From contig CAKQRZ010000001.1 in NCBI GenBank assembly GCA_934271715.1, positions 18,819-82,818 on the forward strand: 64,000 nucleotides of DNA, in the 5' to 3' direction. The translations under genes and the position numbers were made by a program. This DNA comes from an uncultured Alphaproteobacteria bacterium. Lineage in GTDB: Bacteria > Pseudomonadota > Alphaproteobacteria > RF32 > CAG-239. The notes under the pieces were generated by a model. It made no database searches. It saw only the letters and a list, made by a program, of their open reading frames with translations, and was not told where the DNA came from. How positions within the stretch are numbered: position 1 is the stretch's first letter; every line of letters begins with the position of its first letter. Positions 1-56,138 of this stretch are shown here, in pieces.

Positions 1-162
1 ATAAAACTGGCTACAACTAAAGTTAATCATCTTCAAAACCTGTTAGTTAACGGCGGCAGTATAGGCAGTTATAATGAAGAAGTAACCTTGACCAAAGCAG
101 CAGACGCATGTAATAAAGGTTTAAATAATAAAGTTAATTTCAGTATTAAAGGTTTTTAATAA
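1..162 (+). CDS. Partial CDS (3' end only) of a hypothetical protein. The frame is open from the window edge to a TAA stop at 160-162.
   Basis: Frame 1 is open (IKLATTKVNHLQNLLVNGGSIGSYNEEVTLTKAADACNKGLNNKVNFSIKGF*). It lies immediately upstream of pilin gene 179..778. Confidence 0.3.
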
Positions 163-178
163 GTTAGGAGATTTTGAA

Positions 179-778
179 ATGAATACGGCAAATGAAAATG
201 GTCGCAGTATGATAGAAATGCTGGGCGTTCTGGCAATTATCGGCGTGCTGAGCGTCGGCGGTTTCAGCATGGTTAATAAAATGCAGACTTCTTATGAAAT
301 CAATCAGGTTTTAGACGCCGCCGGCGAGCTGGCAACCCGCACCCGCAATGTGATGCGCAACTATGATTTGGATGATGACAACAGCTCCAAAAACACTTCT
401 ATGAATGAATATCTGCTAAAAGCCAAAGCGGTGCCGGATGTATTTCTAAATTCGGGCGAATTTGAAGTCGGCGATGTAACCTATAACGTGCAGTATTTGG
501 GCGACAGCGTTACCTTTGTGGTGCAGGTGCAGAATCTGACCGAAGAAATGTGCATGCAAATGGTAACAACCAACTGGGGCGGACCAGGCACCAGCGGATT
601 TTTAGGCATGTCGGTTGACGATAGCGCAAATTCGGTTAATGAGGCTATAAAAAACAAAAGTTCGGGTTCTGCCACCGTTGCTCTTATCGGCAGCGCAGAC
701 CATCCGGCGCCTATGGGCATCGGTTCGGCAGCCACGGCTTGCGGCGATGGAAAAACTGTTAACCTGTCATTTAGATAA
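179..778 (+). CDS. Type IV pilin / pseudopilin-like protein with a canonical short leader (MNTANENG|RSMIEML)
   Basis: RBS aggag lies 7 nt upstream of the ATG. The N-terminus has a prepilin cleavage/methylation motif: Gly at -1, Glu at +5, then a hydrophobic helix LGVLAIIGVLSVGG that is shared with seven other genes in the window. Confidence 0.8.
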   Translation: MNTANENGRSMIEMLGVLAIIGVLSVGGFSMVNKMQTSYEINQVLDAAGELATRTRNVMRNYDLDDDNSSKNTSMNEYLLKAKAVPDVFLNSGEFEVGDVTYNVQYLGDSVTFVVQVQNLTEEMCMQMVTTNWGGPGTSGFLGMSVDDSANSVNEAIKNKSSGSATVALIGSADHPAPMGIGSAATACGDGKTVNLSFR

Positions 779-797
779 TCTAACAAAGTGAGGCTGC

Positions 798-2282
798 ATG
801 CTAAAGTTAAAACATATACCGGTTCAGTCTTTCGGCGAAAATATTGCCTATATACATAAAAACTGCGCGCTGTACAAGGTTGACGACCTGAAAAAGGCCA
901 CTCGTCTGGAAATTCATAAAGGCAGCAAAACTATTTATGCGTTTTTGCAGATTGTTGCCGAAGACGGAGTGCTGGCAGATGATGAAATCGGGCTTAATGA
1001 CGAAGCTTTTTCCGCGCTCAATATGTCGGAGGGAACAGAAGTTCATGTCAGCTTAGCGGCGCCGTCCGAAAGCACAAAAGCTCTGCACCGCAAGATATCC
1101 GGTGATGTCTTGACTTCCGGCGAATATGCGACAATTATCGGCGATATTGCGGCCGGACGCTATTCTAAGGCTGATATAGCCGCCTTTTTAGTGGCTTGCT
1201 CGTCTTCAATGAGTGCTACGGAGCTGGTTTCTTTTACCGAAGCTCTGGTTACTAAAAAAGTTTTGCATTGGGATGAAAAAAGCATGGTCGTAGACCAGCA
1301 TTGCTTGGGCGGCGTGCCTGCCGATAAGACTGATTTAGTGGTTTTGGCAATTACGGCGGCGTATGGTTTGCCTATGGCTAAGCCAAGCATCCGCTCGCTG
1401 ACCTCCTGCGCCGGCGTGGCTGATACTATGGGTGTTTTGACCGAGGTTGACTATAACGCGGCAAAATTTCAGAAATTTGTGCGGGCTAACAACGGAGCAA
1501 TCGTAAACTATGACGCTATGGAAGAAACAAAAGTCAACCACTTGCTGCATGATGTGCGCAGCCAGCTGGGCATCAACCAAAATGAGCTGGTTATAGCCTC
1601 TATTCTGGCGATGATGATTTCTGCCGGAGTCAGCCATTTAGTGCTGGATATTCCGGTCGGCGCTAATGCGCGGGTGCGTTCGGCTAATGAGGCAATCCGT
1701 ATCCGCAAGCAGGTTGAATATGTCGGCGATATGCTGGGAATTTCGGTTGACGCGGTGGTTACCGACGGCAGCGAGCCGGTCGGCAGCGGTATTGGGGCGG
1801 TTTTAGAAGCCCGCGATGTACTGAAAATTTTGCAAAACGCGGCAGATGCTCCGATAGACCTCCGCGAAAAGTCTCTGTTTTTGGCGGGGCGGGTGCTTGA
1901 ATTTGATCCGCAGCTGAGGGGCGGGCAGGGCTATGCCGTTGCCAAAGAAATTTTGGAAAGCGGTCGCGCTTTTGAAGCCTTTCAAAAAATTATTTCCGCT
2001 CAAGGGGCAAAGCAAATGCCGGAGCTGGGGCAGTATGTGCGCGAAGTTGTGGCGCCGTATGACGGTGTTGTCAGCGCCATAAACAATGTGACAATCAATA
2101 AAATAGGCGTATATGCCGGCGCCACTCAATGTCTGGGTTCCGGTTTGGACTTAAAAAAGAAAACCGGCGACCGTGTAAAAGCCGGCGAAGTTCTTTACAC
2201 CATCTATTCCTGCAATGCTGCGGATTTTGACGTTGTTTCGCAGCTGGTGGAAGTGGATAGCGGCTATTCTATAGACATATAG
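798..2282 (+). CDS. Thymidine phosphorylase family protein (long roughly 500-aa form, AMP/pyrimidine-nucleoside phosphorylase-like)
   Basis: 494 aa. Its architecture parallels deoA at 62665..63975: a glycosyltransferase-family-3-like core (HCLGGVPADKTDLVVLAITAAYGLPMAKPSIRSLTSCAGVADTMG) followed by a C-terminal PYNP-like domain. Confidence 0.55.
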   Translation: MLKLKHIPVQSFGENIAYIHKNCALYKVDDLKKATRLEIHKGSKTIYAFLQIVAEDGVLADDEIGLNDEAFSALNMSEGTEVHVSLAAPSESTKALHRKISGDVLTSGEYATIIGDIAAGRYSKADIAAFLVACSSSMSATELVSFTEALVTKKVLHWDEKSMVVDQHCLGGVPADKTDLVVLAITAAYGLPMAKPSIRSLTSCAGVADTMGVLTEVDYNAAKFQKFVRANNGAIVNYDAMEETKVNHLLHDVRSQLGINQNELVIASILAMMISAGVSHLVLDIPVGANARVRSANEAIRIRKQVEYVGDMLGISVDAVVTDGSEPVGSGIGAVLEARDVLKILQNAADAPIDLREKSLFLAGRVLEFDPQLRGGQGYAVAKEILESGRAFEAFQKIISAQGAKQMPELGQYVREVVAPYDGVVSAINNVTINKIGVYAGATQCLGSGLDLKKKTGDRVKAGEVLYTIYSCNAADFDVVSQLVEVDSGYSIDI

Positions 2283-2426
2283 CTTAGCGCAACATGTCTA
2301 ACGGCACATCTAAAGGCAACTTACGTTCATTCAGAAAATTCATGTACTATTATGTGCACTAGGATTTTCTCTGCGTTGGAGATAGATTTTATTTATCTGA
2401 TTTCTATGCAGTAGATAAAAATATAT

Positions 2427-2846
2427 CTATAGTGTATAAAATTTTTTTTCGGCAGGAGAAAATGTTTTTGAAGAACAGATTGAATATTTTACTTTTGTCT
2501 GAATAGCTTCAGGCAGAGTGCCAATTATTTTAAATTTTCCATTATTATACAACTCGTTAATTTGTTGCTTTTCAATTTTTTGCATACCGCTTTTACCGCA
2601 ATGAATGCAGCAATTTTTAGTTAATTCTTCAGGCCAATCTTTTGTTGATAACTCTACAACTGAGGCTGCATCATATCTTGCGCGCAGTTTTACTTTTTCT
2701 ACTTTTGAAGTAATGTATAAATATTCCATTGTTTCGGCGTTTACCATTATAATTAAGCGATGCTCTTTATCGCTGCCTATGGGGAAGAGCGCCTTGTAAA
2801 CTTTCCATCTGTCCAATGGAATCATCTTAAATGGCAAATCAATCAA
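2427..2846 (-). CDS. Hypothetical protein. It is the downstream partner of a Panacea-domain gene, overlapping it by 8 nt, and is a candidate toxin.
   Basis: 139-aa ORF that overlaps 2839..3441 by 8 nt in the same orientation. I recognise no family. Confidence 0.4.
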   Translation of the reverse strand: MIDLPFKMIPLDRWKVYKALFPIGSDKEHRLIIMVNAETMEYLYITSKVEKVKLRARYDAASVVELSTKDWPEELTKNCCIHCGKSGMQKIEKQQINELYNNGKFKIIGTLPEAIQTKVKYSICSSKTFSPAEKKFYTL

Positions 2847-3441
2847 TTTTATCTCTTAACGCATTTAAAAAATCTTCGTCCATGGTAAATACATCGTCAT
2901 GCAAGCCTTTTGTTTTAGATTTTTCTAAAGTATCAGGGTTTAGTAAAAAGTCTTTTTCATCCATTAAAAAACGATTTCCATCAACACCCAATTTTTTCTC
3001 AAATTTTTTCCATTCTGGGTAATCATGTGAAATATCACTCAAATCAAATTGGCAGAACTTTCCAAAATTTGAAATAGAAAAATCCAAAGCTTCTTTAAAA
3101 CTTTCTGAAAGTTCATCATCACTTTGTGGTTTAATATAAACAGAATATTCATCAAGACTTTCAACGTCTTTTAATAAATTTGCATCCGAAACTGCTGCAC
3201 ACTCAGGCAATTTATTATTCATAATGTCTTTAGCAGCAGAGGCAACAGGTCCGTTTTTCATTGCGTAATAAGAATCATCAGAAGCTAAGCATCCATAATG
3301 CCGCATATGATAACGATCTGCAAAGAATAAAATTTTTAAAAAATACATAACAGTTTGCTTGCTGTTGTTTGTAGCAGGAGCATGGTTTTGAATATAAAAA
3401 AGCGCTTGCAAAATTTTGCGCATAGAAATTGTATAAGACAT
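2839..3441 (-). CDS. Panacea-domain (DUF4065, SocA-like) antitoxin-like protein
   Basis: The N-terminus KILQALFYIQNHAPATNNSKQTVMYFLKILFFADRYHMRHYGCLASDDSYYAMKNGPVASAAKDIM resembles the DUF4065/Panacea signature (KLQKLLYYAQ...GPV). The C-terminus is acidic. Confidence 0.5.
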   Translation of the reverse strand: MSYTISMRKILQALFYIQNHAPATNNSKQTVMYFLKILFFADRYHMRHYGCLASDDSYYAMKNGPVASAAKDIMNNKLPECAAVSDANLLKDVESLDEYSVYIKPQSDDELSESFKEALDFSISNFGKFCQFDLSDISHDYPEWKKFEKKLGVDGNRFLMDEKDFLLNPDTLEKSKTKGLHDDVFTMDEDFLNALRDKID

Positions 3442-3522
3442 TTTTCTTCCTTTTCTTTTTTTATTATATATTATTTTTATATAAAAATCAATATGTTTTG
3501 TATTTGCTTGTTTTTTACATCA

Positions 3523-4308
3523 TTATTCCATTTCTACAGTAACTGAGCAGCTTTCGGTTGCGCCTGTGCATTTTTTGCAAACTTCATTGATTTGCTGAGG
3601 GGTAATGCTTGTTAAACACTGTTTATTAGAATCCTTGCAATATTTGTCGCCATACCAATAATTTGCGGAGTCATTATTACCTTTGCCGGAGCGCCATACA
3701 CCGGTAAATCTGATAAAGCTGTGCAATGGCGTAAAAACATTAGCCATGATTTCTTCGCAGAATTTTGAAGAAAATGCCGGAGTTGTGGCAGCTCCGTCTG
3801 CGTCATAGTTTGCACCGCCTATTTCTATGCTGAATACAACTCTGTTCCAGCGGGAAAATAAAGCGCTGTTGTTGCCGTAAGCATCTAAAAAAGATGTGTT
3901 GTGATATGCGGCGGCGTTTTGTTCTATAGGCCAATTATCAGGGACTAAGCCTAAGGCTTGTATGGTATCAGCTATGCCGTATACATCGCCTCCGGAATTT
4001 AGTTTTTTAAAGTCTGAAAGATGTTCTACTAACCCCTGCACAAGCTGGTTATATTCTCCGACTGCCTTGGTTAGCTTAAATTTTTCCATGGCTTTGGAAT
4101 AACCTGCGATTCCGCCGACTGATAATACGCCGATAATCGCCAGAACGCCGAGCATTTCTATCATACTCCGCCCGGATTGAGAATAAGCACTTACTCTGCG
4201 TCCCCGGCACCAGTCATTCTTGGGTTTATCCCAAGAATCTTCTCTCAACCAACACTTATGCAATAATAAGGCTAATTTATTGACTAGGTTAGGGACTCGC
4301 TGCAACAA
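3523..4308 (-). CDS. Type IV pilin-like protein with an A-module 5' region. The pilin frame is open upstream to 4506, and the ATG at 4515-4517 is 2 nt out of frame.
   Basis: Mature N-terminus ...SQSG|RSMIEMLGVLAIIGVLSVGGIAGYSKAMEKFK. The C-terminal Cys-rich tail is CKKCTGATESCSVTVEME. The annotated start at 4308 is a TTG artefact of the ORF track. Confidence 0.75.
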   Translation of the reverse strand: MLQRVPNLVNKLALLLHKCWLREDSWDKPKNDWCRGRRVSAYSQSGRSMIEMLGVLAIIGVLSVGGIAGYSKAMEKFKLTKAVGEYNQLVQGLVEHLSDFKKLNSGGDVYGIADTIQALGLVPDNWPIEQNAAAYHNTSFLDAYGNNSALFSRWNRVVFSIEIGGANYDADGAATTPAFSSKFCEEIMANVFTPLHSFIRFTGVWRSGKGNNDSANYWYGDKYCKDSNKQCLTSITPQQINEVCKKCTGATESCSVTVEME

Positions 4309-4480
4309 GATTCTAGGTACAAGACCTAGAATGACTGGTGCTTGAGGCGCTAGCTTAGTGCCGTCTGTTATTTTAGTTTTTACTGTATTATTTCCGAAAG
4401 TGTTATTTTTTCTACCAAACCCTGCAAAAATGTGCTGAACAGCAGAAAAAGTGCCTTTAATCAGATGTTTAGGGTTTGCA

Positions 4481-4494
4481 GAGAGAGAGAGAGA
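4481..4494. repeat. (GA)7/(CT)7 dinucleotide tract between the A-module ATG and the pilin reading frame
   Basis: Direct reading: gca gagagagagagaga cc. The ATG frame reads MKNKLFKGLSLSLQTLNI* and the pilin frame is shifted by +2. Confidence 0.9.
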
Positions 4495-4553
4495 CCTTTG
4501 AATAGCTTATTTTTCATATTTCTTTCCTCTTAAATTATGTTGTTTACACTCCA

Positions 4554-4584
4554 ATTCTATAACAGGCACGCTCAATATGTCAAT
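4554..4584 (-). promoter_or_regulatory. Sigma70-like promoter of A-module (TTGACA-N18-TAGAAT)
   Basis: On the minus strand: TTGACAtattgagcgtgcctgttaTAGAAT, then about 35 nt, the RBS aagaggaaag and the ATG at 4517. The promoter is conserved in module copies at 26.6 kb, 39.1 kb and 55.07 kb. Confidence 0.55.
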
Positions 4585-4603
4585 CTTAAATATTGGCGGA
4601 ATA

Positions 4604-8124: not shown

Positions 8125-8201
8125 GCAGGCGTAGCTCATCAGGATAGAGCGACTTCCTCCTAAGAAGTAGGCAGGCGGTTCGAGTCCGCCCGCTTGTACC
8201 A
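8125..8201 (+). tRNA. tRNA-Arg (anticodon CCT)
   Basis: Cloverleaf: D-stem GCTC/GAGC, anticodon stem ACTTC/GAAGT with loop ctCCTaa, T-arm GGCGG-TTCGAGT-CCGCC, and a 3' ACCA. The acceptor stem has two G-U pairs. Confidence 0.75.
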
Positions 8202-8365
8202 TTTAGCTTTTCCGCCCTTTCATTTAGTTGAGTTGTATATATTACCATACCATGGTTACCATGCAGTGGCTTTTTCCATTAAGGCATTTTTTATAAGCTT
8301 CATCAATTTCCGTCAATGTCATATTTATAAAATATGCAAAATCAAAGCATAGGAAAAGCCGGAAA

Positions 8366-8541
8366 TGTGTAAAAAAAACGACCGTTTAAAAGGGACAGTT
8401 TTTAGGCTGTTTTTAGTAATGTATCACGGTTTGCTGCAAAATGCAATAACATAATAATTTTGCGTTATTTTTTTCATAATTTTGCAACATTTCAGCAGCT
8501 TGTTTTGAGTGTGTAAAAATAACGGTCGTTTTTTTTACACA
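8366..8541 (+). repeat. B-module element bounded by 21-bp perfect inverted repeats (tgtgtaaaaaaaacgaccgtt ... aacggtcgttttttttacaca), copy 1
   Basis: Inverted repeats at 8366-8386 and 8521-8541. It is followed by taataggaggaataagATG and the conserved 18 codons. Similar copies lie at 26687-26862 and 55125-55300; the inverted repeats are identical in all three, while the internal segment diverges. Confidence 0.8.
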
Positions 8542-8557
8542 TAATAGGAGGAATAAG

Positions 8558-10195
8558 ATGTTGAAGAGTATGAATTTTTTAAGAGGAAAGAGCAGGGAAA
8601 GAGTAAGTGGAGGCGGCACTTCCGTTTGCAGCGTCATTCTTCGCCGGTACTCCCAGCTGGAAGTACCATGGCGGAGAATCCATAACGTCATTGCGCATGC
8701 AATGTCAGTATGCGTTGCCGTTGGCAACAAAGTCATGGATACTCGTCTGCCACAGCCTGCGGGGTGTGGCGACAAGTATGACGTTTCGGGTCGGTGCCGG
8801 GGACGAGGGGTTAGTGCATTTAGCACCTTTACTATTAAAGCAATGTCAATATTAGCATTTCTTTGCTTATTCGCAACCGCGGCGGAGGCGAAGATTTGCT
8901 TTTTGCCGGACGGCAGCTGCGGCACTAGTAAAACAACCGGATTTAAGCAGAATCCAAACGGAAGCGGATGTATGTATAAATCGGAAGCTGAAGCCCGAAA
9001 CGGCTTAGGCGCCTGCGAAACCACATATAAGCAAAACATGTGCTATTATCGGCGCTGCAAGACTGAAGACAATAATATATTTGCAGACGAGGCAAGCTGC
9101 AAAAAGAAAGCCAAAGCAGATAATTTAATCTGCGTAAGCTGCGGCGGCTGCTATAAAGTTACGCCGAAAACATGCCCGAGTGGGTACACGGCAGGCTTAA
9201 CCGCCTGCGCAGAAAAAGCAGGCTATACGGCAAGTTATTCAAGCAACGGCTATGTAGGATATAGCGTCTGCGGCAAGTGCAAATATACCATAAAATCATG
9301 TGAAAGCGGCTATACTGTGGGCTTGGCCAGCTGTCCGGAAAAACAAGGTTATACTTCTAACTATTCCAGAAACGGAGTTTCCGGCGAGCAGGTCTGCGGC
9401 AAGTGCGACTACACGGCAAAGAGCTGTGCCGGAGGTTATACAGCGGGTCTGACAAGCTGCAGCGAGCGCCAAGGCTACACAGCAAGTTTAGTCAGCAATG
9501 GCTATGCCGGGGAGTTGGCTTGCGGAAAATGCAGTTATACGGCAAAAAGCTGTGCCGGAGGTTATACAGCAGGTCTGACAAGCTGCAGCGAACGGCGCGG
9601 CTATAATGCAAGCTATGCCAGCAACGGGTATGCCGGTGAGAAAATTTGCGGAAAATGCGACTATACGGCAAGAACTTGCCCAGATGGATATTCTACAAGA
9701 TATAGCAGCGTCAGCGCCTGCGGAAAAACAGGAAGTAACGGCTGGAATTATTATACTAATGGCTATTCAGGGGAAGCTGTGTGCGGGCAATGTAAAAGTA
9801 AAGCCTGTCCTAATGGGTATACTTGTACGTATTCTAGTAATATCAAGGCTCCTTGTAATAAAAGTATGGGATGTCCAGGCGATAGTGGGTATTATATTTA
9901 TGGTGGTATATTGGAACTAGGCTGGAGTAATGGATGTTTTGAGCGAGGGTATTATGTATATGTTATCTCTAATCGTTGCGGAGACGGGGTATGTGTCAGC
10001 AAATATGCAGCACGCACATGTCCTAGTGGTACAATGTTAAGAGATAGTGTAGATAATATTTATATATATTGCCAAAATAAAAATGCTACATCTTTTTGGG
10101 ATAAATATAATTGGTCGGCAAGGGCTGCAAAAGATGCAAACGGAGATACAGTTTGTTCAGGTTCAGAAATATGTATGGAATGCTATAAAAAATAA
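8558..10195 (+). CDS. Cys-rich tandem-repeat secreted protein with a B-module N-terminal extension. The signal-peptide-like MSILAFLCLFATAAEA starts at 8822.
   Basis: The ATG at 8558 (RBS aggagg) reads the conserved MLKSMNFLRGKSRERVSGGG and runs in frame, with no stop, into a signal peptide and five roughly 42-aa repeats of the form K.C..GYTAGLTSC.E..GYTAS..SNGYAGE..CGKC.YTA. At DNA level the repeats have a 126-bp period (9416-9541 and 9542-9667 are near-identical). Confidence 0.6.
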   Translation: MLKSMNFLRGKSRERVSGGGTSVCSVILRRYSQLEVPWRRIHNVIAHAMSVCVAVGNKVMDTRLPQPAGCGDKYDVSGRCRGRGVSAFSTFTIKAMSILAFLCLFATAAEAKICFLPDGSCGTSKTTGFKQNPNGSGCMYKSEAEARNGLGACETTYKQNMCYYRRCKTEDNNIFADEASCKKKAKADNLICVSCGGCYKVTPKTCPSGYTAGLTACAEKAGYTASYSSNGYVGYSVCGKCKYTIKSCESGYTVGLASCPEKQGYTSNYSRNGVSGEQVCGKCDYTAKSCAGGYTAGLTSCSERQGYTASLVSNGYAGELACGKCSYTAKSCAGGYTAGLTSCSERRGYNASYASNGYAGEKICGKCDYTARTCPDGYSTRYSSVSACGKTGSNGWNYYTNGYSGEAVCGQCKSKACPNGYTCTYSSNIKAPCNKSMGCPGDSGYYIYGGILELGWSNGCFERGYYVYVISNRCGDGVCVSKYAARTCPSGTMLRDSVDNIYIYCQNKNATSFWDKYNWSARAAKDANGDTVCSGSEICMECYKK

Positions 10196-25353: not shown

Positions 25354-25610
25354 ACTCGTCTAATGCAGAAACTCGCCTAATGGCTTTCTGCTGGTAAGAT
25401 TTTTTCTTATGTACTAGTTTGTACACCGCGAAAAAATCTTACTTCGCATTAAGCTCATTATCCGAGTTTCTGCATGCTTGTACCGGTTGTGCTTGTGTAC
25501 CTCGTTGTATACTGCGAAAAAATCTTCGTATTAGCCTCATTATCCGCATTGCTTGACAGAGTGTGCTATTTAAAACCACGCCCCGTAAGGAGGTAAATAA
25601 TATTAGCCAA

Positions 25611-26339: not shown

Positions 26340-26550
26340 AAGGCCTAGAATGACAGGTACTAGAGGCGCAGACTTAGTGTTGGTTAATAGATTGCTTCGC
26401 TTTGCTCGCAGTGACGGCAGAGCAAGAGGCGAGCCTGTTAGTTTTGTTCTTAATGCGTTATTACCGAAAGTATCATTTTTTCTGCCAAATCCTGTAAAAA
26501 CGTGCTGAACGGCAGAAAAAGCGCCTTTAATCAGATGTTCAGGATTTGCA

Positions 26551-26564
26551 GAGAGAGAGAGAGA
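26551..26564. repeat. (GA)7/(CT)7 tract of the A-module
   Basis: Direct reading. The ATG frame reads MKNKQSKGLSLSLQILNI*. Confidence 0.9.
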
Positions 26565-26624
26565 CCTTTGGATTGCTTATTTTTCATCTTTCTTTCCTCT
26601 ATATTTAAGTTATTTTATACCTTT

Positions 26625-26654
26625 ATTCTACAACAGCCTCACTCCATAAGTCAA
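26625..26654 (-). promoter_or_regulatory. Sigma70-like promoter of the A-module (TTGACT-N18-TAGAAT)
   Basis: Minus strand: TTGACTtatggagtgaggctgttgTAGAAT. Confidence 0.55.
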
Positions 26655-36468: not shown

Positions 36469-37422
36469 ATGGCAACAGTAAATGATACAGAATTTTCGGA
36501 TATTTATATTATTCCGGATGGCACGGCCTACATTTGGGGGCGTCAGACACCAAGCGGATTGATTCAGGTTCAACCGGATGATTATGATGAATTTTTGCAA
36601 CAAGTTATGAATACATATGACGGTCATAATCCAAGTTATCAAGTAAAATTTAAAGGTTTGAACTACCGTGTTGAAAGAACCGTAACGCTGGAAGGACAGC
36701 AATACTGCGCCCGTAAAATGCCTCACTCTGTGCCGGATATTAACAAACTTGGTATAGAAGAACATTTGCTCAAATACTTAAAATCACTAAGCGGCGCTCC
36801 CGGACTTATTTTGCTTGCCGGTACAACCGGTTCCGGTAAAACCACCACTCTATCAGCTTTGCTGCGTGAATTTTTGATTCGCGACGGCGGCTATGCTTTT
36901 ACGCTGGAAGACCCGGTGGAAATGCCGCTGGACGGCACTTATCATACGGTAAACGGCGAGCTTGGCATTTGCAAACAGATGACGCCTCCGGGAGGTTCTT
37001 GGGAAGCCGGTCTGAAATCAATGCTGCGTTCTAAGCCGCGTTATGTATATCTGGGTGAGATTCGTGACCCTGAAATTGCCTCTGAAGCTTTGCGTGCAGC
37101 TATTTCAGGCCACCTTGTTATGTCCACAATTCACGCCAGCACCGTTACTGATGCTATTCAGTCTATTGTAAAATACGCCGCGGCAACCGGTATTTCCGAA
37201 GAAATGGCCTATGACTTGGTGGGCAACGGTATTTTGGCGGTGCTGCACCAAAGCTTGGTCGGCGTTCCTAAGCGCGCTAAAATTGAATATGTGTTTGCTA
37301 ATCCGGACGGCTCTAAAGGCGACCAAGTGCGCGGTATTATCAAAAGCGGCAAGATGAACTTGTCTACCACGATTGAAACTCAGCGCATTCGTTTGTCACG
37401 CGGCGTGCCGTTGTTTGAATAA
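36469..37422 (+). CDS. PilT/PilU-family secretion ATPase (type IV pilus retraction ATPase-like), short form
   Basis: Walker A GTTGSGKTTT, Asp box TLEDPVE, Walker B YVYLGEIRD and His box HLVMSTIHA. At 317 aa it is shorter than canonical PilT. Confidence 0.65.
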   Translation: MATVNDTEFSDIYIIPDGTAYIWGRQTPSGLIQVQPDDYDEFLQQVMNTYDGHNPSYQVKFKGLNYRVERTVTLEGQQYCARKMPHSVPDINKLGIEEHLLKYLKSLSGAPGLILLAGTTGSGKTTTLSALLREFLIRDGGYAFTLEDPVEMPLDGTYHTVNGELGICKQMTPPGGSWEAGLKSMLRSKPRYVYLGEIRDPEIASEALRAAISGHLVMSTIHASTVTDAIQSIVKYAAATGISEEMAYDLVGNGILAVLHQSLVGVPKRAKIEYVFANPDGSKGDQVRGIIKSGKMNLSTTIETQRIRLSRGVPLFE

Positions 37423-38209: not shown

Positions 38210-38890
38210 CTAAGGCCAGAGATGAATGGAATAGTGCGCCGCACCGCTGCTTTTAGACAATATGTGGCAGCGTTTTTGAATATCGCTCAGTTTGGCGTCG
38301 GCTAAATCTGTATAGTTAAATAGTATAGCATCATTCACCCCTTCTCCAAAATTTTGCCTAAAATTTGATTTCTTAATTTCCAGTGCTACCGGTTGGATTG
38401 CTAAGACTAAATTGCGGCAAAATTCTTCATTATCCTGCGGCAGATAGGCGTCTTTATTAGCCATAAAATATATTTCCATAACATAATATTTACAGTCTTT
38501 CATATTATATTTATGGATTTCTATATGGTTTCCGCTTTTATCATAAATGGCGTTATTTTCAAAAGTTGTTCCCTCCGGCAGATATCCAAGGTCATTAACT
38601 AAATATGTGATATTTTGAAAGTCTCCTAAATTGCTGCCGAGTTTGGGCTTGATTTCTATCATTGCATGAATAAGTTCTGTAATCATATTGCGCTGAATGT
38701 TTGATTTCCACATATTCATAGCTTTAGAATATCCGGCAATCCCTCCAACAGACAGAACAGCTATTATCGCCAATACACCCAGCATTTCTATCATACTTCT
38801 TCCAAAAAAATTTGCGCCTCTGCCGCCAGTCATCCTAGGCCGTGACGCACGGTCTGTGCCTAGGATCTTGTCGCACCAAGGGCGGTGCAA
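38210..38890 (-). CDS. Type IV pilin-like protein with an A-module 5' region. The frame is open upstream to about 39056, and there is an internal in-frame ATG (leader MTGGRGANFFG).
   Basis: ...RPRMTGGRGANFFG|RSMIEMLGVLAIIAVLSVGGIAGYSKAMNMWK. The C-terminus contains Cys. Confidence 0.75.
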   Translation of the reverse strand: MHRPWCDKILGTDRASRPRMTGGRGANFFGRSMIEMLGVLAIIAVLSVGGIAGYSKAMNMWKSNIQRNMITELIHAMIEIKPKLGSNLGDFQNITYLVNDLGYLPEGTTFENNAIYDKSGNHIEIHKYNMKDCKYYVMEIYFMANKDAYLPQDNEEFCRNLVLAIQPVALEIKKSNFRQNFGEGVNDAILFNYTDLADAKLSDIQKRCHILSKSSGAAHYSIHLWP

Positions 38891-39029
38891 ACCCTCTCCC
38901 TCAAGGGGCGAGGTTGTTAGTTTACTTCTTAATGCGTTATTACCGAAAGTGTTATTTTTTCTGCCAAACTCTGTAAAAACGTACTGAACGGCAGAAAAAG
39001 CGCCTTTAATCAGATGTTCAGGATTTGCA

Positions 39030-39045
39030 GAGAGAGAGATAGAGA
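39030..39045. repeat. Interrupted CT/GA tract of an A-module: (GA)5-TA-GAGA, 16 nt
   Basis: gca gagagagagatagaga cc. It is 2 nt longer than the other four copies and is still out of frame. Confidence 0.9.
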
Positions 39046-39105
39046 CCTTTGGATTGCTTATTTTTCATCTTTCTTTCCTCTTATTTTAAGTTATTTTACA
39101 TTTTT

Positions 39106-39135
39106 ATTCTATACCAGCCGCACTCCATAAGTCAA
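39106..39135 (-). promoter_or_regulatory. Sigma70-like promoter of an A-module (TTGACT-N16/18-TAGAAT)
   Basis: Minus strand: TTGACTtatggagtgcggctggtaTAGAAT. Confidence 0.5.
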
Positions 39136-45095: not shown

Positions 45096-45929
45096 TTAAA
45101 AAGTCATAACAATATGGCACCACGGAGATTTATCTGTACAAGATTTACACATCTCATCAATTTTATTTAAGGTAAGTTCGTTAAGACATTTATTTTCTCC
45201 GCCGCAATAATTGTCTCCATAATATGCGTAGTCCGAAGCCACCGTATGACGATAAAAACTGACATAATATAGGGCGCTATGCAAAGGTTTCATTACATTA
45301 TTGTATAGAGCTCGGCAATATTCAAGATTAGTTTTGTCCGGCAGAATTATACCCTTTTGTTGGTCAATAATACCTATTTCAAAAACCAAATGGCCGTTGC
45401 GAACAAAAGGCCAAACCCAATGATTTTGGGAATCAATAAGCGTAAGTCCCGAATTAGACCATGTTGTTGGAGTTAAATTTGCAGCAATGGCAAATTCAGT
45501 TAAATAGAGCTGAGAACCGTTTGAATTTAATTTTTCATAGTCTGGCAGATGCTCAATCAATCCGGTAATAAAATAAGTGTATTCTTCTATAATTTTATTG
45601 ACCTTAAATTTTTCCATTGCTTTGGAATATCCGGCGATGCCGCCGACTGATAGAACACCAATAATCGCCAGAACGCCCAGCATTTCAATCATTGACCGAC
45701 CGGCTGAAACCGCGTATAGCGGCGCATCTAAAGCAGTTTTACGCTGTCTCAAAAAATTCATGTACCTCCAATGTACACTAGGATTTTTTTCGCAGCTAGA
45801 AACCACTTTATCTACACCACTCTCCGCAGTTTCGAGGAGTTTTGAGGTGTATTGACGCACGACATCCAAACCCTTAAATGTGATGTTGTTTCTTTCGGCG
45901 TCATTGCGAGGAGTGTAACGACGAAGCAA
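45096..45929 (-). CDS. Type IV pilin-like protein with an A-module 5' region. The frame is open upstream to 46082, and the ATG at 46091-46093 is out of frame.
   Basis: ...YAVSAG|RSMIEMLGVLAIIGVLSVGGIAGYSKAMEKFK. An internal in-frame M would give a 21-aa leader. The C-terminal tail is CKSCTDKSPWCHIVMTF. Confidence 0.75.
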   Translation of the reverse strand: MLRRYTPRNDAERNNITFKGLDVVRQYTSKLLETAESGVDKVVSSCEKNPSVHWRYMNFLRQRKTALDAPLYAVSAGRSMIEMLGVLAIIGVLSVGGIAGYSKAMEKFKVNKIIEEYTYFITGLIEHLPDYEKLNSNGSQLYLTEFAIAANLTPTTWSNSGLTLIDSQNHWVWPFVRNGHLVFEIGIIDQQKGIILPDKTNLEYCRALYNNVMKPLHSALYYVSFYRHTVASDYAYYGDNYCGGENKCLNELTLNKIDEMCKSCTDKSPWCHIVMTF

Positions 45930-46056
45930 TCCAGAACCCTTTATAGAGTAGCTACTGAATGTGTTTTTTCCGAATGTGTGATTTTTTGCGCCGAACTCTG
46001 CAGAAACACGCTGAGCGGCGAAAAATGCGCCTTTAATCAGATGTTTAGGATTTGCA

Positions 46057-46070
46057 GAGAGAGAGAGAGA
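46057..46070. repeat. (GA)7/(CT)7 tract of an A-module
   Basis: Direct reading. The ATG frame reads MKNKLFKGLSLSLQILNI*. The pilin frame reads ...SLSLSANPKHLIKGAFFAAQRVSAEFG... Confidence 0.9.
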
Positions 46071-46251
46071 CCTTTGAATAGCTTATTTTTCATCTTTCTT
46101 TCCTCTTATTTTAAGTTAACTACGACATTTATTTTAACTAAATAAAACCGGAAAGTAAAGATAATTTTGGTATCGTCATGCGTTGTTTTAAGTGTCAGTA
46201 AAAACAGTAAAAGCCTGTCTTTTATAAGACAGGCTTTTAAAAAGGATTTGT

Positions 46252-51578: not shown

Positions 51579-51587
51579 AACAAACCT

Positions 51588-52298: not shown

Positions 52299-52655
52299 AT
52301 GGAAAATTCGCAAAGAAATCCGATGTTTGAACGCCGCATTCAAAAACTGCTGAAAAAGATGAACCGCCTCAACAAGATTTACCGCCAGCAGATGCATGAG
52401 CAGAAAGCTCAGGAAAATAACCGGCAAAATACAGAGCAGAAACACTATCAGCCTAAGGCTAAAAGAGAAATCAGCCGCGCCGATTTGCTGAACGGTCTGC
52501 GTATGGGGCAGTCTTATGCCATGCAGCGCAAATTGCTGGAGCGTTTGAGCAATACCCGCAGCGAGCGCCAGCTTCCGCCGAAAGAACGCGAGCGTATGCG
52601 CGAACGTACCCGCGAGCGTCTGCGTCAGCGCGAAAGAGACGGCTATACTCGCTGA
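52299..52655 (+). CDS. Hypothetical Arg/Glu-rich protein
   Basis: ERERMRERTRERLRQRERD at the C-terminus. Its status as a real gene is uncertain. Confidence 0.3.
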   Translation: MENSQRNPMFERRIQKLLKKMNRLNKIYRQQMHEQKAQENNRQNTEQKHYQPKAKREISRADLLNGLRMGQSYAMQRKLLERLSNTRSERQLPPKERERMRERTRERLRQRERDGYTR

Positions 52656-52739
52656 TTTTTCAGTTTTCAATACTTGACAAAATTTATTTTTTTTTATACA
52701 AAGACAGTTAAATCATAATTATTATTTAAATTTTTTTGT

Positions 52740-53234
52740 ATGGATAATATTTTTCATTTGATTCATGTTAATGCGTTTGATGAGTTAAACGAGATTGTGT
52801 TTAACAAAAAATTGTCAGCGAACTGTTTCAGAGGCTATGCCTCTTGTTTGAGCAGCGAAGAAGAAAAATTTCTGATTCAGAAATTTTTAGAGACTAAAGG
52901 CGAGGATTGGTTTGCTTTTATCAAAAAGTACATCGGTCATTTTCCGCTTTCATCTGACGCGGTATTGCTTTTGCTTGAAAATTCTGCAAACAGCGAGATT
53001 AAAACGCTTTTGGCAGAAGAGTGGAAAAAGTACGGTGCTTGCGAAAAAGAAAGCTTGGCTTTTTGTGACAGACTTCATGGTCAAAATGAGATTGATGAGA
53101 ACTTGCTGGCTGTTTTCTGCGACAGCGCCCGTCTGGCTTATGATGATGCAGCTTATAAGCTTTCGCTTATAGACAGCAAATGGAGTGAACGTTACATAAA
53201 CGCTTCTAAGCGCTACATGCAAAACACGCATTAA
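52740..53234 (+). CDS. Hypothetical protein
   Basis: 164-aa ORF. Confidence 0.3.
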   Translation: MDNIFHLIHVNAFDELNEIVFNKKLSANCFRGYASCLSSEEEKFLIQKFLETKGEDWFAFIKKYIGHFPLSSDAVLLLLENSANSEIKTLLAEEWKKYGACEKESLAFCDRLHGQNEIDENLLAVFCDSARLAYDDAAYKLSLIDSKWSERYINASKRYMQNTH

Positions 53235-53370
53235 GTAAGAAAATGCCCTGACTGTTAGATGGTCAAGGGCATTTTTGTTGCAGAATTATGACATTTTGGC
53301 CTCATTTTATAAAAATATTTGCACTTTTTTTAATTCAATGATACTTTTAGTAATTAAAGCGGAGGCTGAA

Positions 53371-53811
53371 ATGCGAAATTTATATAATGCAGTTCCTTTA
53401 ACCGATGAACAAAAAATTTCATACATTCGCGTGCTGGCATATTTAGCCAAAGCCGACCGCAATCCGGCGTATATTGAACGCGATTTTATGGGCAAAATGT
53501 TTGACCGGATGAAACTTTCCGTCGATGTTTTGAAAAAAATTTATATTCCGCGCAATAATGAAGAGCTTTACCGCGCCCTGATGCCGATTTGCACGCGGGC
53601 GATTGCCATAGATTTGCTGCATTGCCTGTGGTTTGCCGCATCGGTTAACACCATTATCTCGGATGAAGAAATCATGATTATCCGCAAAATAGCCCAGATT
53701 CTCCGCATTGATAATGATACTTTGCTGAATATTCATCACTTTGTGACCGATGAAATTATGTTTTTGCAGCATGCCCGCGAGGTTTTGGAAGCAGATGACA
53801 TCCGCTGCTGA
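53371..53811 (+). CDS. TerB-like (tellurite-resistance TerB / DjlA N-domain-like) protein
   Basis: RBS ggagg. Motif SYIRVLAYLAKADRNPAYIERDFM...LLHCLWFAASVNTIISDEE. Confidence 0.45.
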   Translation: MRNLYNAVPLTDEQKISYIRVLAYLAKADRNPAYIERDFMGKMFDRMKLSVDVLKKIYIPRNNEELYRALMPICTRAIAIDLLHCLWFAASVNTIISDEEIMIIRKIAQILRIDNDTLLNIHHFVTDEIMFLQHAREVLEADDIRC

Positions 53812-53918
53812 TTTATGAATATAATAAAAAGGCTCTAAATATAAATTTTCGCACAAAAAGAAAAAAAGTTGTTGCAAATAAAAATATTATGTTTTATACA
53901 ATACCTACATTGTTGATA

Positions 53919-53995
53919 TGCGTGCGTAGCTCAGTTGGCTAGAGCAACTGACTCTTAATCAGTGGGTCCAGGGTTCAAATCCCTGCGCGCGTACC
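53919..53995 (+). tRNA. tRNA-Lys (anticodon CTT)
   Basis: D-stem GCTC/GAGC, anticodon stem ACTGA/TCAGT with loop ctCTTaa, T-arm CAGGG-TTCAAAT-CCCTG, and a 3' ACCA. Confidence 0.75.
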
Positions 53996-54012
53996 AATAA
54001 CAAAGTAACAAA

Positions 54013-54037
54013 GAAACTCCCTTATGGGAGTTTTTTT
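54013..54037 (+). terminator. Terminator hairpin after tRNA-Lys
   Basis: aaactcccttatgggagttt followed by ttttt. Confidence 0.6.
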
Positions 54038-54177
54038 GTTATATGCGCAGTAATGGAAAGAATCCAGAGAAAAGGGGGCAACAATGACGAGAGGCGGACG
54101 GGAGTACGCCGGTAAGCGTCTGCGAGTAAGGACGCAGCGGCGAGAGAAATGAAGCCAATCCCTGCGCGAAACATAAA

Positions 54178-54804
54178 TCATACATTATTATCAAAAAGGA
54201 TTTGAATTAAACAGTAATCGTCTTTGCAGATTTTACAAGCTTCGCTGACTTCCGGCAAATTATAATCTTCTCTTACGCATTCAGCAACAGCATAATCTGC
54301 CGGTCTGGCATTTCCGCAGATTCTATAATCCCAACTGCTGCATGTTCCGCTGCACAATACTATAGTCCAAATAATATCAGTATAAACCGGCAATAAATGG
54401 AATAATTCGCGGCAGTTATATTCGGCTATACTGTTTGGCAATATTTCAAATTGTAAATTTAAACGAGTGTAAATATCATAAGGTTTCATAGTAACAGATA
54501 CTCTGTTTCTAAACAAATCTCTGTTATCATCATCTAACAAGCCTTGAGGCACAATGCCGATTTCTTTTAAGGTGGGCAGAATGTCTTCACTGCGTTTTCC
54601 ATATTGTTTTTCTAATTTATATGTATCTTTGATGTTAAAAATCAGCTCTTCTACTTGCTGAATCCATTTATCTTGCTTCCACTTCTCCATAACCTTGGAA
54701 TAACCGGCGATTCCACCTACTGATAATATACCAACAATCGCCAGAACTCCGAGCATTTCAATCATGCTTCTCCCTAAGAAATTTGCGCTTCTAGCACTCG
54801 TCAT
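54178..54804 (-). CDS. Type IV pilin-like protein with an A-module 5' region. The frame is open upstream to about 55014, and an in-frame ATG gives the short leader MTSARSANFLG.
   Basis: MTSARSANFLG|RSMIEMLGVLAIVGILSVGGIAGYSKVMEKWK. The C-terminal tail is CKICKDDYCLIQILFDNNV. Confidence 0.75.
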   Translation of the reverse strand: MTSARSANFLGRSMIEMLGVLAIVGILSVGGIAGYSKVMEKWKQDKWIQQVEELIFNIKDTYKLEKQYGKRSEDILPTLKEIGIVPQGLLDDDNRDLFRNRVSVTMKPYDIYTRLNLQFEILPNSIAEYNCRELFHLLPVYTDIIWTIVLCSGTCSSWDYRICGNARPADYAVAECVREDYNLPEVSEACKICKDDYCLIQILFDNNV

Positions 54805-54988
54805 ACTAGGCCCTGTGCCTAGTATCTTGTGGCACCAAGGGCGGTGTAATCCATCGCCCCGTGAGGGAGAGGTTATTATTTTTGTTCTTAATGCGTTATT
54901 TCCGAAAGTATCATTTTTTCTGCCAAACCCTGCAAAAACGTGCTGAACAGCAGAAAAAGTGCCTTTAATCAGATGTTCAGGATTTGCA

Positions 54989-55002
54989 GAGAGAGAGAGA
55001 GA
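54989..55002. repeat. (GA)7/(CT)7 tract of an A-module
   Basis: Direct reading. Confidence 0.9.
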
Positions 55003-55062
55003 CCTTTGCTTAGCTTATTTTTCATCTTTCTTTCCTCTTATTTTAAGTTAATTTACATCTTT

Positions 55063-55092
55063 ATTCTACACCAGCCATACTCCATAAGTCAA
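55063..55092 (-). promoter_or_regulatory. Sigma70-like promoter of an A-module (TTGACT-N18-TAGAAT)
   Basis: Minus strand: TTGACTtatggagtatggctggtgTAGAAT. Confidence 0.55.
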
Positions 55093-55124
55093 CCGTAAAA
55101 TCAAAGCGTTGGAAGAGGCGGAAG

Positions 55125-55300
55125 TGTGTAAAAAAAACGACCGTTTAAAAGGGACAGTTTTTAGGCTGTTTTTAGTAATGTAACAGAGGTTGCTAAAATT
55201 TGCAATAACTTTTTATATTTGCGATGTTTTTTGCAGATTTGTGAGACTTTTCAGCGTCTTGTTTATAGTGTGTAAAAATAACGGTCGTTTTTTTTACACA
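55125..55300 (+). repeat. B-module IR-bounded element, copy 3
   Basis: Inverted repeats at 55125-55145 and 55280-55300. An internal putative promoter TTGCTA-N18-TATATT lies at 55209-55238. Confidence 0.8.
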
Positions 55301-55316
55301 TAATAGGAGGAATAAG

Positions 55317-56084
55317 ATGTTGAAGAGTATAGAATTTTTAAGAGGAAAGAGCAGGGGAAGAGTAGGTGGATTGCTTCGCTGCACTCGCAATGACGGTGCA
55401 GGTAACGGCGAGGGATTGCACCGCCCTGGGTGCGACAAGATCCTAGGCACAGACTGTGCGTCACGGCCTAGGATGACTGGTGGCAGAGGCGCAAATTACT
55501 TTGGCCGCAGTATGATAGAAATGCTGGGAGTTCTCGCAATTATCGGAGTGCTGAGTGTCGGCGGAATTGCCGGATATTCTAAAGCTATGATGATGTGGAA
55601 AGTTGATAAATGGAGTGCCGGGTTAATTCAAATGATGCAGGAAGCGCAAACTCTGTATTTGAATCAAAAATCATTCGGCGATACTGTGAAAATTATCACT
55701 CCTCAGCTGGTAGATACCGGAGTTATTCCGCAGGGAATGCTGGATGAAAATTACCGCGATATGTTCGGCAATCGGCTTACTGTTTTAACTCGTTATTGGG
55801 ATGTGTTTGGACTTCGCCTGAATGTTTATCATGAAATGCCTGCCGGTAAAGACGCGGTGGAATGCTGTAAAAAGCTATATGAGATGGGACAGCAGTTTCC
55901 CAGCAACTGGGTAGTAGTAACTGAAAATTTCGGCTATTCAGTCTGCGGCAGAGCGGCGCCGGATAGTTATGTGCAGGCGATGGGCTGTCAGCCTTATAGT
56001 TTAGCTAAGGTCGCAGAACTGTGCAAAAATTGCGAAACCAATAACTGCAATATAATATTTTTATTGGATAATACTAAATATTAA
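55317..56084 (+). CDS. Type IV pilin-like protein with a B-module N-terminal extension
   Basis: MLKSIEFLRGKSRGRVGG...RPRMTGGRGANYFG|RSMIEMLGVLAIIGVLSVGGIAGYSKAMMMWK. The C-terminal tail is CKNCETNNCNIIFLLDNTKY. Confidence 0.75.
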   Translation: MLKSIEFLRGKSRGRVGGLLRCTRNDGAGNGEGLHRPGCDKILGTDCASRPRMTGGRGANYFGRSMIEMLGVLAIIGVLSVGGIAGYSKAMMMWKVDKWSAGLIQMMQEAQTLYLNQKSFGDTVKIITPQLVDTGVIPQGMLDENYRDMFGNRLTVLTRYWDVFGLRLNVYHEMPAGKDAVECCKKLYEMGQQFPSNWVVVTENFGYSVCGRAAPDSYVQAMGCQPYSLAKVAELCKNCETNNCNIIFLLDNTKY

Positions 56085-56098
56085 AAAGATAAAGAAAA

Positions 56099-56120
56099 AC
56101 GCCCTGAAAAGGGCGTTTAA
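56099..56120. terminator. Bidirectional terminator
   Basis: aaacgccctgaaaagggcgttt. Confidence 0.65.
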
Positions 56121-56138
56121 AATTTATAGCGGCAAATA

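Follow-up and report, generated by a model that had tools for sequence, protein, structure and literature searches.

A probable phase-variable family of prepilin-like genes joined to portable start cassettes in an uncultured gut alphaproteobacterium

Introduction

The opa genes of Neisseria form a dispersed family of surface-protein genes with a (CTCTT)n repeat in the signal-peptide coding region, and the sabA and hopZ genes of Helicobacter pylori carry CT repeats in their 5′ coding regions. In Moraxella (pilin inversion by Piv) and in Campylobacter fetus (sap inversion), rearrangement swaps the variable body behind an expression signal, while invertible promoters are found in Escherichia coli (fimS) and in Bacteroides (invertons). 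To our knowledge, work on phase-variable surface families has centred on a few cultured pathogens (Neisseria, Helicobacter, Mycoplasma), and such families are hardly known in uncultured gut commensals. Here we analyse a stretch of 64,000 nucleotides (hereafter the window) from an uncultured Alphaproteobacteria bacterium (assembly GCA_934271715.1, contig CAKQRZ010000001.1, positions 18,819 to 82,818), which contains eight type IV pilin-like genes, seven of them preceded by a long leader and one of two start cassettes, A and B.

In H. pylori oipA, CT dinucleotide repeats likewise lie in the 5′ coding region (PMC10564699). A repeat tract in an open reading frame (ORF) upstream of the pil1 genes of Streptococcus gallolyticus provides stochastic control of the pilus by transcription attenuation (PMC3894217). 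A class III signal peptide has a leader that ends in Gly or Ala directly before a mainly hydrophobic segment of about 20–25 residues that forms the N-terminal helix, often with Glu at position +5 (PMC10191384).

We consider it probable that the window represents a prepilin family fused to portable 5′ cassettes, of which A acts as a (CT)n switch and B always supplies a start codon in frame. The frame logic, the tract polymorphism, the ON (in-frame) alleles, the module exchange and the pilin-like fold are established from the sequences, and we infer from them that filaments are assembled and that a prepilin peptidase removes the leader at the G|R junction. The initial annotation of the window had read the genes as pilin scaffolds for programmed surface variation, with two 5′ modules that can replace one another, a proposal that the frame logic, the exchange and the fold support.

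Results

Long stop-free leaders upstream of the pilin-like genes

All eight annotated genes (179–778, 3523–4308, 25611–26339, 26879–27760, 38210–38890, 45096–45929, 54178–54804 and 55317–56084) were confirmed as ORFs at their positions, and all eight share the segment G-R-S-M-I-E-M-L-G-V-L-A-I with the Gly-1/Glu+5 prepilin motif ascribed to them. The annotated TTG and GTG starts, by contrast, are merely the first possible codons after a stop and not real starts. Only the first gene (179–778, plus strand) has an ordinary short leader, as had been noted: the eight residues MNTANENG precede RSMIEM..., with a Shine-Dalgarno (SD) sequence AGGAG of its own. Its likeness to the other seven stops after ...LSVGG (about 21 mature residues), and its body is unrelated. 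The other seven ORFs are alike through ...GGIAGYSKAM and form one family with their homologues, with 32% mean column identity and conserved cysteines. The Cx2-3C...C tail attributed to all eight genes was found in six, but not in 179–778 and 38210–38890.

A start codon or ribosome-binding site near Gly-1 is absent in seven of the eight window pilins. That the DNA upstream of them is open in the pilin frame was borne out by the distribution of stop codons. Over eight spacers, belonging to the seven long-leader pilin genes and to a Cys-rich gene described below, the gene frame contains no stop at all, versus 52 and 62 stops in the other two sense frames. Shuffling gave probabilities of an open frame between 0.0005 and 0.026 per spacer. 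Furthermore, the Gly-Arg-Ser codons vary between copies by multi-base synonymous changes (Arg as CGC, AGA or CGG; Ser as AGT, AGC or TCA). Since Gly-Arg-Ser is kept through synonymous changes, translation must begin upstream of Gly-1.

The same conclusion emerges from 78 distinct family genes taken from all fetched loci, which split into two groups. Sixteen genes have 7–23 open codons upstream, and every one of these has an ATG with an SD sequence 6–14 codons before Gly-1. The other 62 genes have 36–312 open codons upstream, and just 14 of them have an ATG with an SD sequence within 30 codons of Gly-1. Hence, the family consists of ordinary prepilin genes and of genes that rely on a distant start codon.

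The spacers comprise 60–130 codons in the window and reach about 300 codons elsewhere. They are mosaics of short palindromic units, whose order and number vary by copy and strain. One such unit, GATTGCTTCG...CGCAATGAC, translates to LLRRYTPRNDA or, in reverse orientation, to SLRAKRSN; other units are TTCTAGG...CCTAGAA, TTCTTGGG...CCCAAGAA and ATCCTAGG...CCTAGGAT. Within the window the units are confined to these leaders. Of 116 unit matches in 818 kb of related loci, 101 lie at most 1 kb upstream of a pilin start, and the remaining 15 fall in the leaders of two variant pilins (L080 and L087) and of the Cys-rich gene, or at contig ends. A translated spacer should do no harm as long as it is stop-free, because a prepilin leader, like the region before a Sec signal, stays cytoplasmic and gets cut off.

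Cassette A carries a (CT)n switch in its coding region

The seven long-leader genes each take one of the two annotated modules, with cassette A upstream of five and cassette B upstream of two (ATGs 26879 and 55317). The consensus of 62 distinct A copies consists of a TTGACT-18-TAGAAT promoter, the ribosome-binding site AGAGGAAAGAAAG and ATG AAA AAT AAG, followed by three further codons, GGT, (CT)n and GCA AAT CCT..., which opens a conserved stretch of about 35 residues (ANPEHLIKGAFSAVQH...). The (CT)n tract begins 24 nt (8 codons) past the cassette ATG, i.e. in the coding region and before the mature protein.

A metagenome scan for cassette A returned 87 loci. Complete copies, those of the window included, numbered 53. 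In 51 of the 53, the frame leaving the tract is open into the pilin, despite 36 distinct leader lengths (54–303 residues) and 45 distinct pilin C-termini. Tract length predicted the frame of these 51 copies without exception: the 4 copies with n = 6 are in frame, the 37 with n = 7 are offset by 2 and the 10 with n = 8 are offset by 1. With n = 7 or 8, the cassette ORF terminates after 16–18 codons, just before the conserved segment. Alleles with n = 6 are complete ORFs of 268–343 amino acids (aa) that begin MKNKLFKGLSLSANPKHLIKG..., and further ON alleles are P0133, P0176 and P0243. ON-phase fragments with (CT)6, (CT)9 and (CT)12 were found as well. The hypothetical ON peptide, used as a protein query, matched just six short fragments; the full-length ON alleles sat inside 90% clusters. 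The initial annotation had described A as a promoter plus a (CT)n switch. The switch logic holds in the 51 of 53 copies, but the tract belongs to the coding region, not to the promoter.

Tract length is polymorphic at a single locus. Orthologues of pilin gene 45096–45929 that stand beside an identical 296-aa neighbour have n = 7 in the window and in L097, L098 and L100, and n = 8 in L101; these orthologous loci show two different spacer mosaics. In another assembly this pilin occurs as an ON allele with (CT)6, P0133 (335 aa, in one 90% cluster with the window protein), its locus being identified through the pilin itself. The rule linking frame to tract length, the ON alleles and the tract polymorphism together bear the signature of repeat-tract translational phase variation, apparently in a new variant of the opa/oipA type.

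All five A copies of the window lie on the minus strand and are OFF. Four have (CT)7 with an offset of 2, and one has an interrupted 8-unit tract with an offset of 1, so that each gene is a single repeat unit away from ON (loss of a unit for (CT)7, gain of one for the 8-unit tract). Cassette A1 (4480–4583) has its promoter, TTGACA-18-TAGAAT, at 4583–4554, an SD sequence, ATG 4517 and (CT)7 at 4493–4480. It is followed by the stop-free spacer 1 of palindromic repeat units (4174–4479) and by pilin body 1 (3523–4173, from Gly-1 to the stop codon); ATG 4517 lies 353 nt upstream of the MIEM ATG at 4164, in frame 2. Cassette A2 (26550–26654; promoter TTGACT-18-TAGAAT at 26654–26625, ATG 26587, (CT)7 at 26563–26550) precedes the stop-free spacer 2 (26193–26549) and body 2 (25611–26192). 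The interrupted tract, CTCTATCTCTCTCTCT at 39044–39029, is that of A3, which together with spacer 4 occupies 38804–39135 (promoter 39135–39106, ATG 39068) upstream of body 4 (38210–38803, without the CxxC tail); its frame 1 is equivalent to n = 8. Spacer 5 and A4 extend over 45702–46093 (ATG 46093, (CT)7 at 46069–46056) and lead to body 5 (45096–45701), which elsewhere occurs as the ON allele P0133 and as a B-driven allele, P0003. Spacer 6 and A5 (54775–55092; promoter 55092–55063, ATG 55025, (CT)7 at 55001–54988) precede body 6 (54178–54774).

The promoter hexamers of A4 are partly deleted: a deletion of about 13 nt in the segment 45702–46200 removes TTGACT...TAGAAT. A4 may be transcriptionally weak even if in frame. 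A candidate hairpin, TTTTTCTGCC...GGCAGAAAAA, in the post-tract segment was dropped, as RNAalifold on 52 distinct copies gave no consensus structure.

Cassette B places its start codon in frame

Cassette B has no repeat tract. It consists of a conserved left flank of about 30 nt, a 176-bp element with perfect 21-bp inverted repeats (IRs), TAATAGGAGGAATAAG, and then ATG TTG AAG AGT..., which translates to MLKSIEFLRGKSRG. In all 15 complete copies upstream of pilins the ATG is in the pilin frame. Together with the perfect IRs, this agrees with the annotation of B as an IR-bounded element with an in-frame ATG. The interior of the element measures 134 nt and contains A8/T8, in a strongly conserved layout. 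Its best promoter-like site, TTGTTA-18-TATATT (9 of 12 matches), faces the ATG. The IRs could be recombinase sites or operators.

Among 18 distinct IR elements, 17 have the SD-ATG flank and share one internal orientation, and one (L061) lies between two A cassettes. No inverted B element was found in the window, in one related genome or in about 90 metagenome loci, where assemblies give the majority state only. No recombinase gene lies near the B copies or elsewhere in the 64-kb window, although one could be encoded in another part of the genome; the neighbours of about 290 aa are a HAD hydrolase, a nucleotidyl transferase and an unknown protein. A terminator scan around the head-to-head locus found none.

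The window has three B copies. Two serve pilins at the two annotated head-to-head loci, 25611–26339(−)/26879–27760(+) and 54178–54804(−)/55317–56084(+), both of which were confirmed. At the former, the IR element occupies 26687–26862 (plus strand), with the IRs TGTGTAAAAAAAACGACCGTT and AACGGTCGTTTTTTTTACACA and the promoter-like site at 26752–26781 facing the B ATG. The ATG at 26879, with the SD sequence AGGAGG upstream, opens the stop-free spacer 3 (26879–27121) in the frame of pilin body 3 (27122–27760). At the latter, the element occupies 55125–55300 (left repeat 55125–55145, right repeat 55280–55300, internal promoter-like site 55190–55219), and ATG 55317 opens the stop-free spacer 7 (55317–55502) in the frame of pilin body 7 (55503–56084).

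The third B copy, which the initial annotation had missed, is a repeat at 8338–8611 that contains an IR element at 8366–8541 (plus strand; left repeat 8366–8386, right repeat 8521–8541). The ATG, at 8558, shares its frame with a gene that encodes no pilin (8558–10195, plus strand). This 545-codon ORF opens with a repeat-built spacer of 95 codons (8558–8842), passes through a Sec-type signal peptide (MSILAFLCLFATAAEA) and goes on with some 450 residues of tandem repeats rich in Cys (...CxxGYTAGLTSC...GYxASYxSNGYxGExxCGKCxYT...). The protein had no match in Pfam or NCBIfam, and an orthologue in L063 has the same arrangement of B and spacer. The modules had been regarded as dedicated to pilins. 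B does occur mainly with pilins, but it also drives this gene for a Cys-rich secreted protein and hence is not strictly pilin-dedicated.

The 3′ flanks of one head-to-head pair (25389–25526 and 27791–27872) are conserved and mutually inverted over 82 nt, with 78% complementarity, and a tandem duplication (25389–25440 and 25475–25526) includes AAGATTTTTTC...GAAAAAATCTT. This 3′-flank element is possibly a shared terminator.

Exchange of modules and rearrangement between strains

Loci from public metagenomes show the same pilin bodies behind different cassettes, as the term interchangeable had implied. Protein P0003, present on at least 24 contigs, is 98% identical to window pilin 45096–45929 yet starts with the B peptide. 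Body 45096–45701 thus follows A in the window but B in P0003/L003. Most strains have B upstream of body 55503–56084, whereas L111 has A (n = 8) there.

Such exchanges are accompanied by larger rearrangements. L003 fuses window positions 52312–55370 (A, IR element and B) to window positions 45707–42101 in reverse. The partner across the IR element is a 54178-type pilin in the window-type strain L110, another pilin beside the rplS operon in L108, and a GmrSD gene in L107 and L109. In L099 a DNA methylase is inserted after the 296-aa gene. We rejected a single reciprocal inversion between the window and L003, as the expected second junction was not found and the L107 junction, on the same contig, does not fit. 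Given the GmrSD and methylase insertions and the differing partner genes, the strain rearrangements are more complex, and the pilin loci look more like hot spots of recombination than like a single, defined invertible segment.

Defence-type genes lie directly beside the cassettes in L099, L107, L109 and L111, namely GmrSD, a DNA methylase with two unknown genes, and DUF5677. The pilin loci may double as hot spots of integration and rearrangement. In L008, an IS110-family (DEDD) transposase gene (2715–3647) lies in the spacer just past an ON-phase (CT)6 A cassette, and parts this cassette from a short-leader pilin gene. IS110-type elements target palindromic repeats. In L080, an A cassette (n = 8, OFF) and a spacer lead, from position 226, to the pilin N-terminus G|HSMIEMLGILAI..., which continues into over 700 residues of Gly-rich repeats (GGIVG, GGLVGYN) that resemble a beta-helix adhesin. 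The whole has the look of a modular 'giant pilin'.

Prepilin features of the proteins

A Gly residue directly precedes R-S-M-I-E-M in all eight window genes and is nearly invariant among 43 aligned members, while the Glu at +5 is invariant in the alignment and the hydrophobic N-terminal segment reads RSMIEMLGVLAIIGVLSVGGIAGY. Many family members have classical leaders of 7–8 residues, e.g. MKQNQFG| and MKIKNQQG|. An AlphaFold model of one member (predicted local distance difference test, pLDDT, 83) has a helix over residues 4–49 and the 'lollipop' fold. It came nearest to the type IVb pilins CofA and TcpA, with about 150 residues matched. About half of the 43 members weakly matched models of prepilin-peptidase-dependent proteins. 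On the grounds of Gly-1 and Glu+5, the short leaders of relatives and the nearest fold, we file the family members as type IVb-like prepilins, an assignment made from alignment and modelling.

Family size and distribution

Identical or near-identical proteins and contigs were found in human-gut metagenomes, Hadza samples among them. The family has at least 7,943 matches in a protein database clustered at 90%. At 50% identity there are at least 5,660 representatives with E ≤ 1e-3, and 4,095 of these have E ≤ 1e-10. None of the 120 best matches carries a precomputed Pfam domain. A scan of a genome collection for the exact pattern of right repeat and SD sequence hit one genome only and is uninformative on wider spread.

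The sole GTDB representative genome with an exact B-cassette match (L005–L007, CAVKTH01 contigs) is titled 'Bacteroidaceae bacterium'. Its contigs start or finish exactly at cassettes, and carry cassettes and pilin genes otherwise seen in metagenome-assembled genomes named Alphaproteobacteria; this bin is probably mislabelled or mixed. Outside the window, additional leader starts were seen in P0045, P0061, P0062, P0066, P0074 and others (MLENGKMGLLRRVFEVIFGHNVINRHF..., MYKNFENVKNK...). These peptides suggest that the wider family has more than two cassette types.

Neighbouring genes in the window

In line with the annotated scatter among housekeeping genes, the neighbours of the pilin genes include tRNA synthetases, DnaJ, PolA, PBP1, LolA, nucleoside phosphorylases and others. 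A PilT/ComGA-like ATPase of the type IV filament superfamily (36469–37422, plus strand) scored below threshold for every subfamily. An Rfam scan of the whole window detected two tRNAs and nothing else. Both adjoin cassette loci: the tRNA gene at 8125–8198 precedes the third B cassette repeat by about 140 nt, and that at 53920–53993 lies about 185 nt past the 3′ end of pilin 54178–54804. Directly downstream of pilin 3523–4308, the segment 2427–3441 (minus strand) holds a SocA/Panacea-domain antitoxin gene (2839–3441) and an overlapping ORF of 139 aa without a family match, possibly a toxin-antitoxin pair.

Discussion

Proposed mode of expression

In the proposed mechanism, the cassette would bring a promoter, an SD sequence and an ATG to each of the seven pilin genes by translational fusion. 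The leader made up of spacer and cassette peptide would be cytoplasmic and of unusual length, to be removed by prepilin peptidase at G|R. At cassette A, a tract whose n is a multiple of 3 (6, 9 or 12) would place the ATG in the pilin frame and turn the gene ON, and n = 7 or 8 would lead to a stop after 16–18 codons and turn it OFF. Slipped-strand mispairing at (CT)n could then switch each A-type gene on and off stochastically and independently, while B-type genes would be translatable whenever their own promoter is active. The loci share cassettes, spacer units and the first ~100 nt of their pilin genes, and homologous recombination between them would reassort the parts and rearrange the chromosome. 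In the state captured by the window, two B-type pilins (26879–27760 and 55317–56084) and the Cys-rich gene are in frame, five genes are OFF, and 179–778 is conventional.

This arrangement may amount to an undescribed gene architecture, in which a portable start cassette (with a repeat-tract switch or lacking one), a long disposable translated spacer and a signal sequence are combined, and in which the units have evolved to be stop-free in both orientations; we hold this further idea tentatively, at a little under an even chance. Cleavage of the signal sequence, by prepilin peptidase in the pilins and by signal peptidase in the Cys-rich protein, would remove the whole N-terminal extension as well. 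With a disposable extension, any recombination within shared units that preserves the frame would give a working gene. If this were true, cassettes, switches and bodies would be freely reshuffled across thousands of members in gut Alphaproteobacteria, and the spacer units would resemble miniature inverted-repeat transposable elements.

Weighing of alternative explanations

Several observations weigh against a prepilin family with a (CT)n switch. OFF alleles make up 47 of 51 copies, with n = 7 strongly favoured, so the tract could be less mutable than assumed. Differences from assembly to assembly are the basis on which we infer switching within populations, and many metagenome loci stem from related strains, which makes the counts not fully independent. 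A stop within the spacer occurs in one ON-phase allele (L009) and in one OFF-phase allele (L039). As to the proteins, the check with pilin hidden Markov models (HMMs) failed on all eight: N_methyl and TIGR02532 matches reached 10–16 bits, below the curated cut-offs of 21.2 bits (Pfam N_methyl PF07963) and 16.3 bits (TIGR02532). At E ≤ 0.05, TIGR02532 matched 10 of the 43 members, none above its cut-off. Foldseek and a PDB sequence profile returned no pilin among their matches, Arg or Lys at +1 is atypical for prepilins, and leaders of 60–300 residues lie far beyond any documented prepilin leader that we know of. The window holds no prepilin peptidase or assembly platform gene, and the PilT-like ATPase at 36469–37422 is its sole machinery-type gene.

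The points about the proteins would also fit bitopic membrane proteins that are not cleaved and form no filaments, in which a single transmembrane helix joins a cytoplasmic N-terminal tail to a periplasmic head: the Arg/Lys at +1, the sub-threshold HMM scores, the missing peptidase and platform genes and the unprecedented 'leaders' all point that way. Yet against such proteins stand the conservation of Gly-1 and Glu+5, the classical 7–8-residue leaders of relatives and a fold nearest to type IVb pilins over about 150 residues, and we regard them as improbable; moreover, this explanation touches the identity of the protein only, and the switch logic would stand. The expression side invites other readings. 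The ORF of cassette A might be a regulatory upstream ORF that acts on downstream transcription or mRNA stability, its length set by (CT)n, with the pilin initiated separately, as the attenuation of S. gallolyticus pil1 (PMC3894217) would suggest and as the end of the ORF after 16–18 codons at n = 7 or 8, before the conserved segment, would allow. Polarity from premature termination would probably deepen the OFF state. Attenuation nevertheless seems very improbable to us, given that 48 of the 62 long-leader genes lack an ATG with an SD sequence within 30 codons of Gly-1, that it does not need a stop-free spacer phased with the pilin across 36 lengths, and that neither a terminator-like site around the head-to-head locus nor a conserved RNA structure in the post-tract segment was found. 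There is only a very slight chance that the long-leader copies form a silent archive, as pilS-like donors for a few ordinary-leader expression loci. Recombination between copies is clear, most A copies are OFF and short-leader members exist; but each long-leader copy has a promoter-like site, a strong SD sequence and an ATG to itself, complete ON alleles exist, the B-type copies are in frame, and open spacers would be needless in an archive.

For n = 7 itself, low-level expression by ribosomal frameshifting or transcriptional slippage on (CU)7 would make sense of the prevalence of this length (37 of 51), since a tRNA on CUC or UCU could re-pair two bases along. We find such recoding barely credible, because n = 8 alleles would require another shift, genuine n = 6 alleles of the same pilin (45096–45929) exist, and neither a canonical slippery heptamer nor a stimulatory structure was found. 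Cassette B might be an inverton, with a recombinase flipping the 176-bp promoter element, which would turn the B gene off and, at head-to-head loci, serve the gene on the A side. Perfect 21-bp IRs around a promoter-like site, in a conserved element with the size and layout typical of invertible promoters, favour this, as do the L061 element between two A cassettes and the frequent contig breaks at the element. However, contigs are expected to break at any repeat, all 17 SD-ATG-flanked copies have one orientation, and no window copy has a recombinase gene nearby, and we judge the inverton rather unlikely.

Implications

The family has no Pfam entry and its members are mostly annotated as 'hypothetical'. 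A common alphaproteobacterial lineage of the human gut appears to gain from it a combinatorial set of pilus subunits or adhesins. Should the long translated spacers prove real, they would widen the concept of a prepilin leader, with repeats domesticated as in-frame linkers for exchangeable parts. There are practical consequences as well: the starts of these genes are miscalled by gene callers, and the cassettes are points where assemblies break, while tract lengths in metagenomes could serve as an ON/OFF record of surface expression in vivo.

Comparison with known systems

We found no prior description of this system in the searchable literature. Among its closest counterparts is opa, with which it shares a dispersed family with own promoters, a tract between the ATG and the mature protein, independent frame switching, mostly OFF copies per genome and recombination between copies. 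Opa proteins are beta-barrels, however, whereas here a dinucleotide repeat controls prepilin-like proteins through a long repeat-built spacer, and a second, tract-less cassette is interchangeable with the first. The (CT)n repeat, its 5′ coding position and the in- and out-of-frame logic by slipped-strand mispairing are those of oipA. Genes of the oipA type are single-copy genes for outer-membrane proteins with the tract in an ordinary signal peptide; the portable cassette, the long spacer and the pilin occur only here.

Compared with the type IVb pilins TcpA of Vibrio cholerae, CofA of enterotoxigenic E. coli and PilS of Salmonella Typhi, the family shows no significant sequence similarity. 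It also differs in having Arg or Lys at +1, leaders of 60–300 instead of about 15–30 residues, and scattered genes instead of a pilus operon. The Piv and sap systems likewise have opposed family members with conserved 5′ ends and place different bodies behind a given expression signal. In contrast to these, no dedicated invertase or defined invertible segment is evident here, and the exchange between strains resembles general homologous recombination, spread over several dispersed loci. The 176-bp element matches fimS and the Bacteroides invertons in its promoter-like size, its perfect IRs and its position directly upstream of a surface-protein gene; with a single orientation in 17 copies and no recombinase nearby, membership of that class is not claimed. 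In pil1 the pilus genes have a separate start, whereas here upstream ORF and pilin form one in-frame fusion. Silent cassettes of the pilS type differ in lacking the promoter-like site, SD sequence and ATG that the cassettes supply to all long-leader copies here. The principle of the switch is known. What is new is its use on a huge prepilin family of uncultured gut Alphaproteobacteria, together with leaders of 60–300 residues made of stop-free repeat units and two interchangeable start cassettes.

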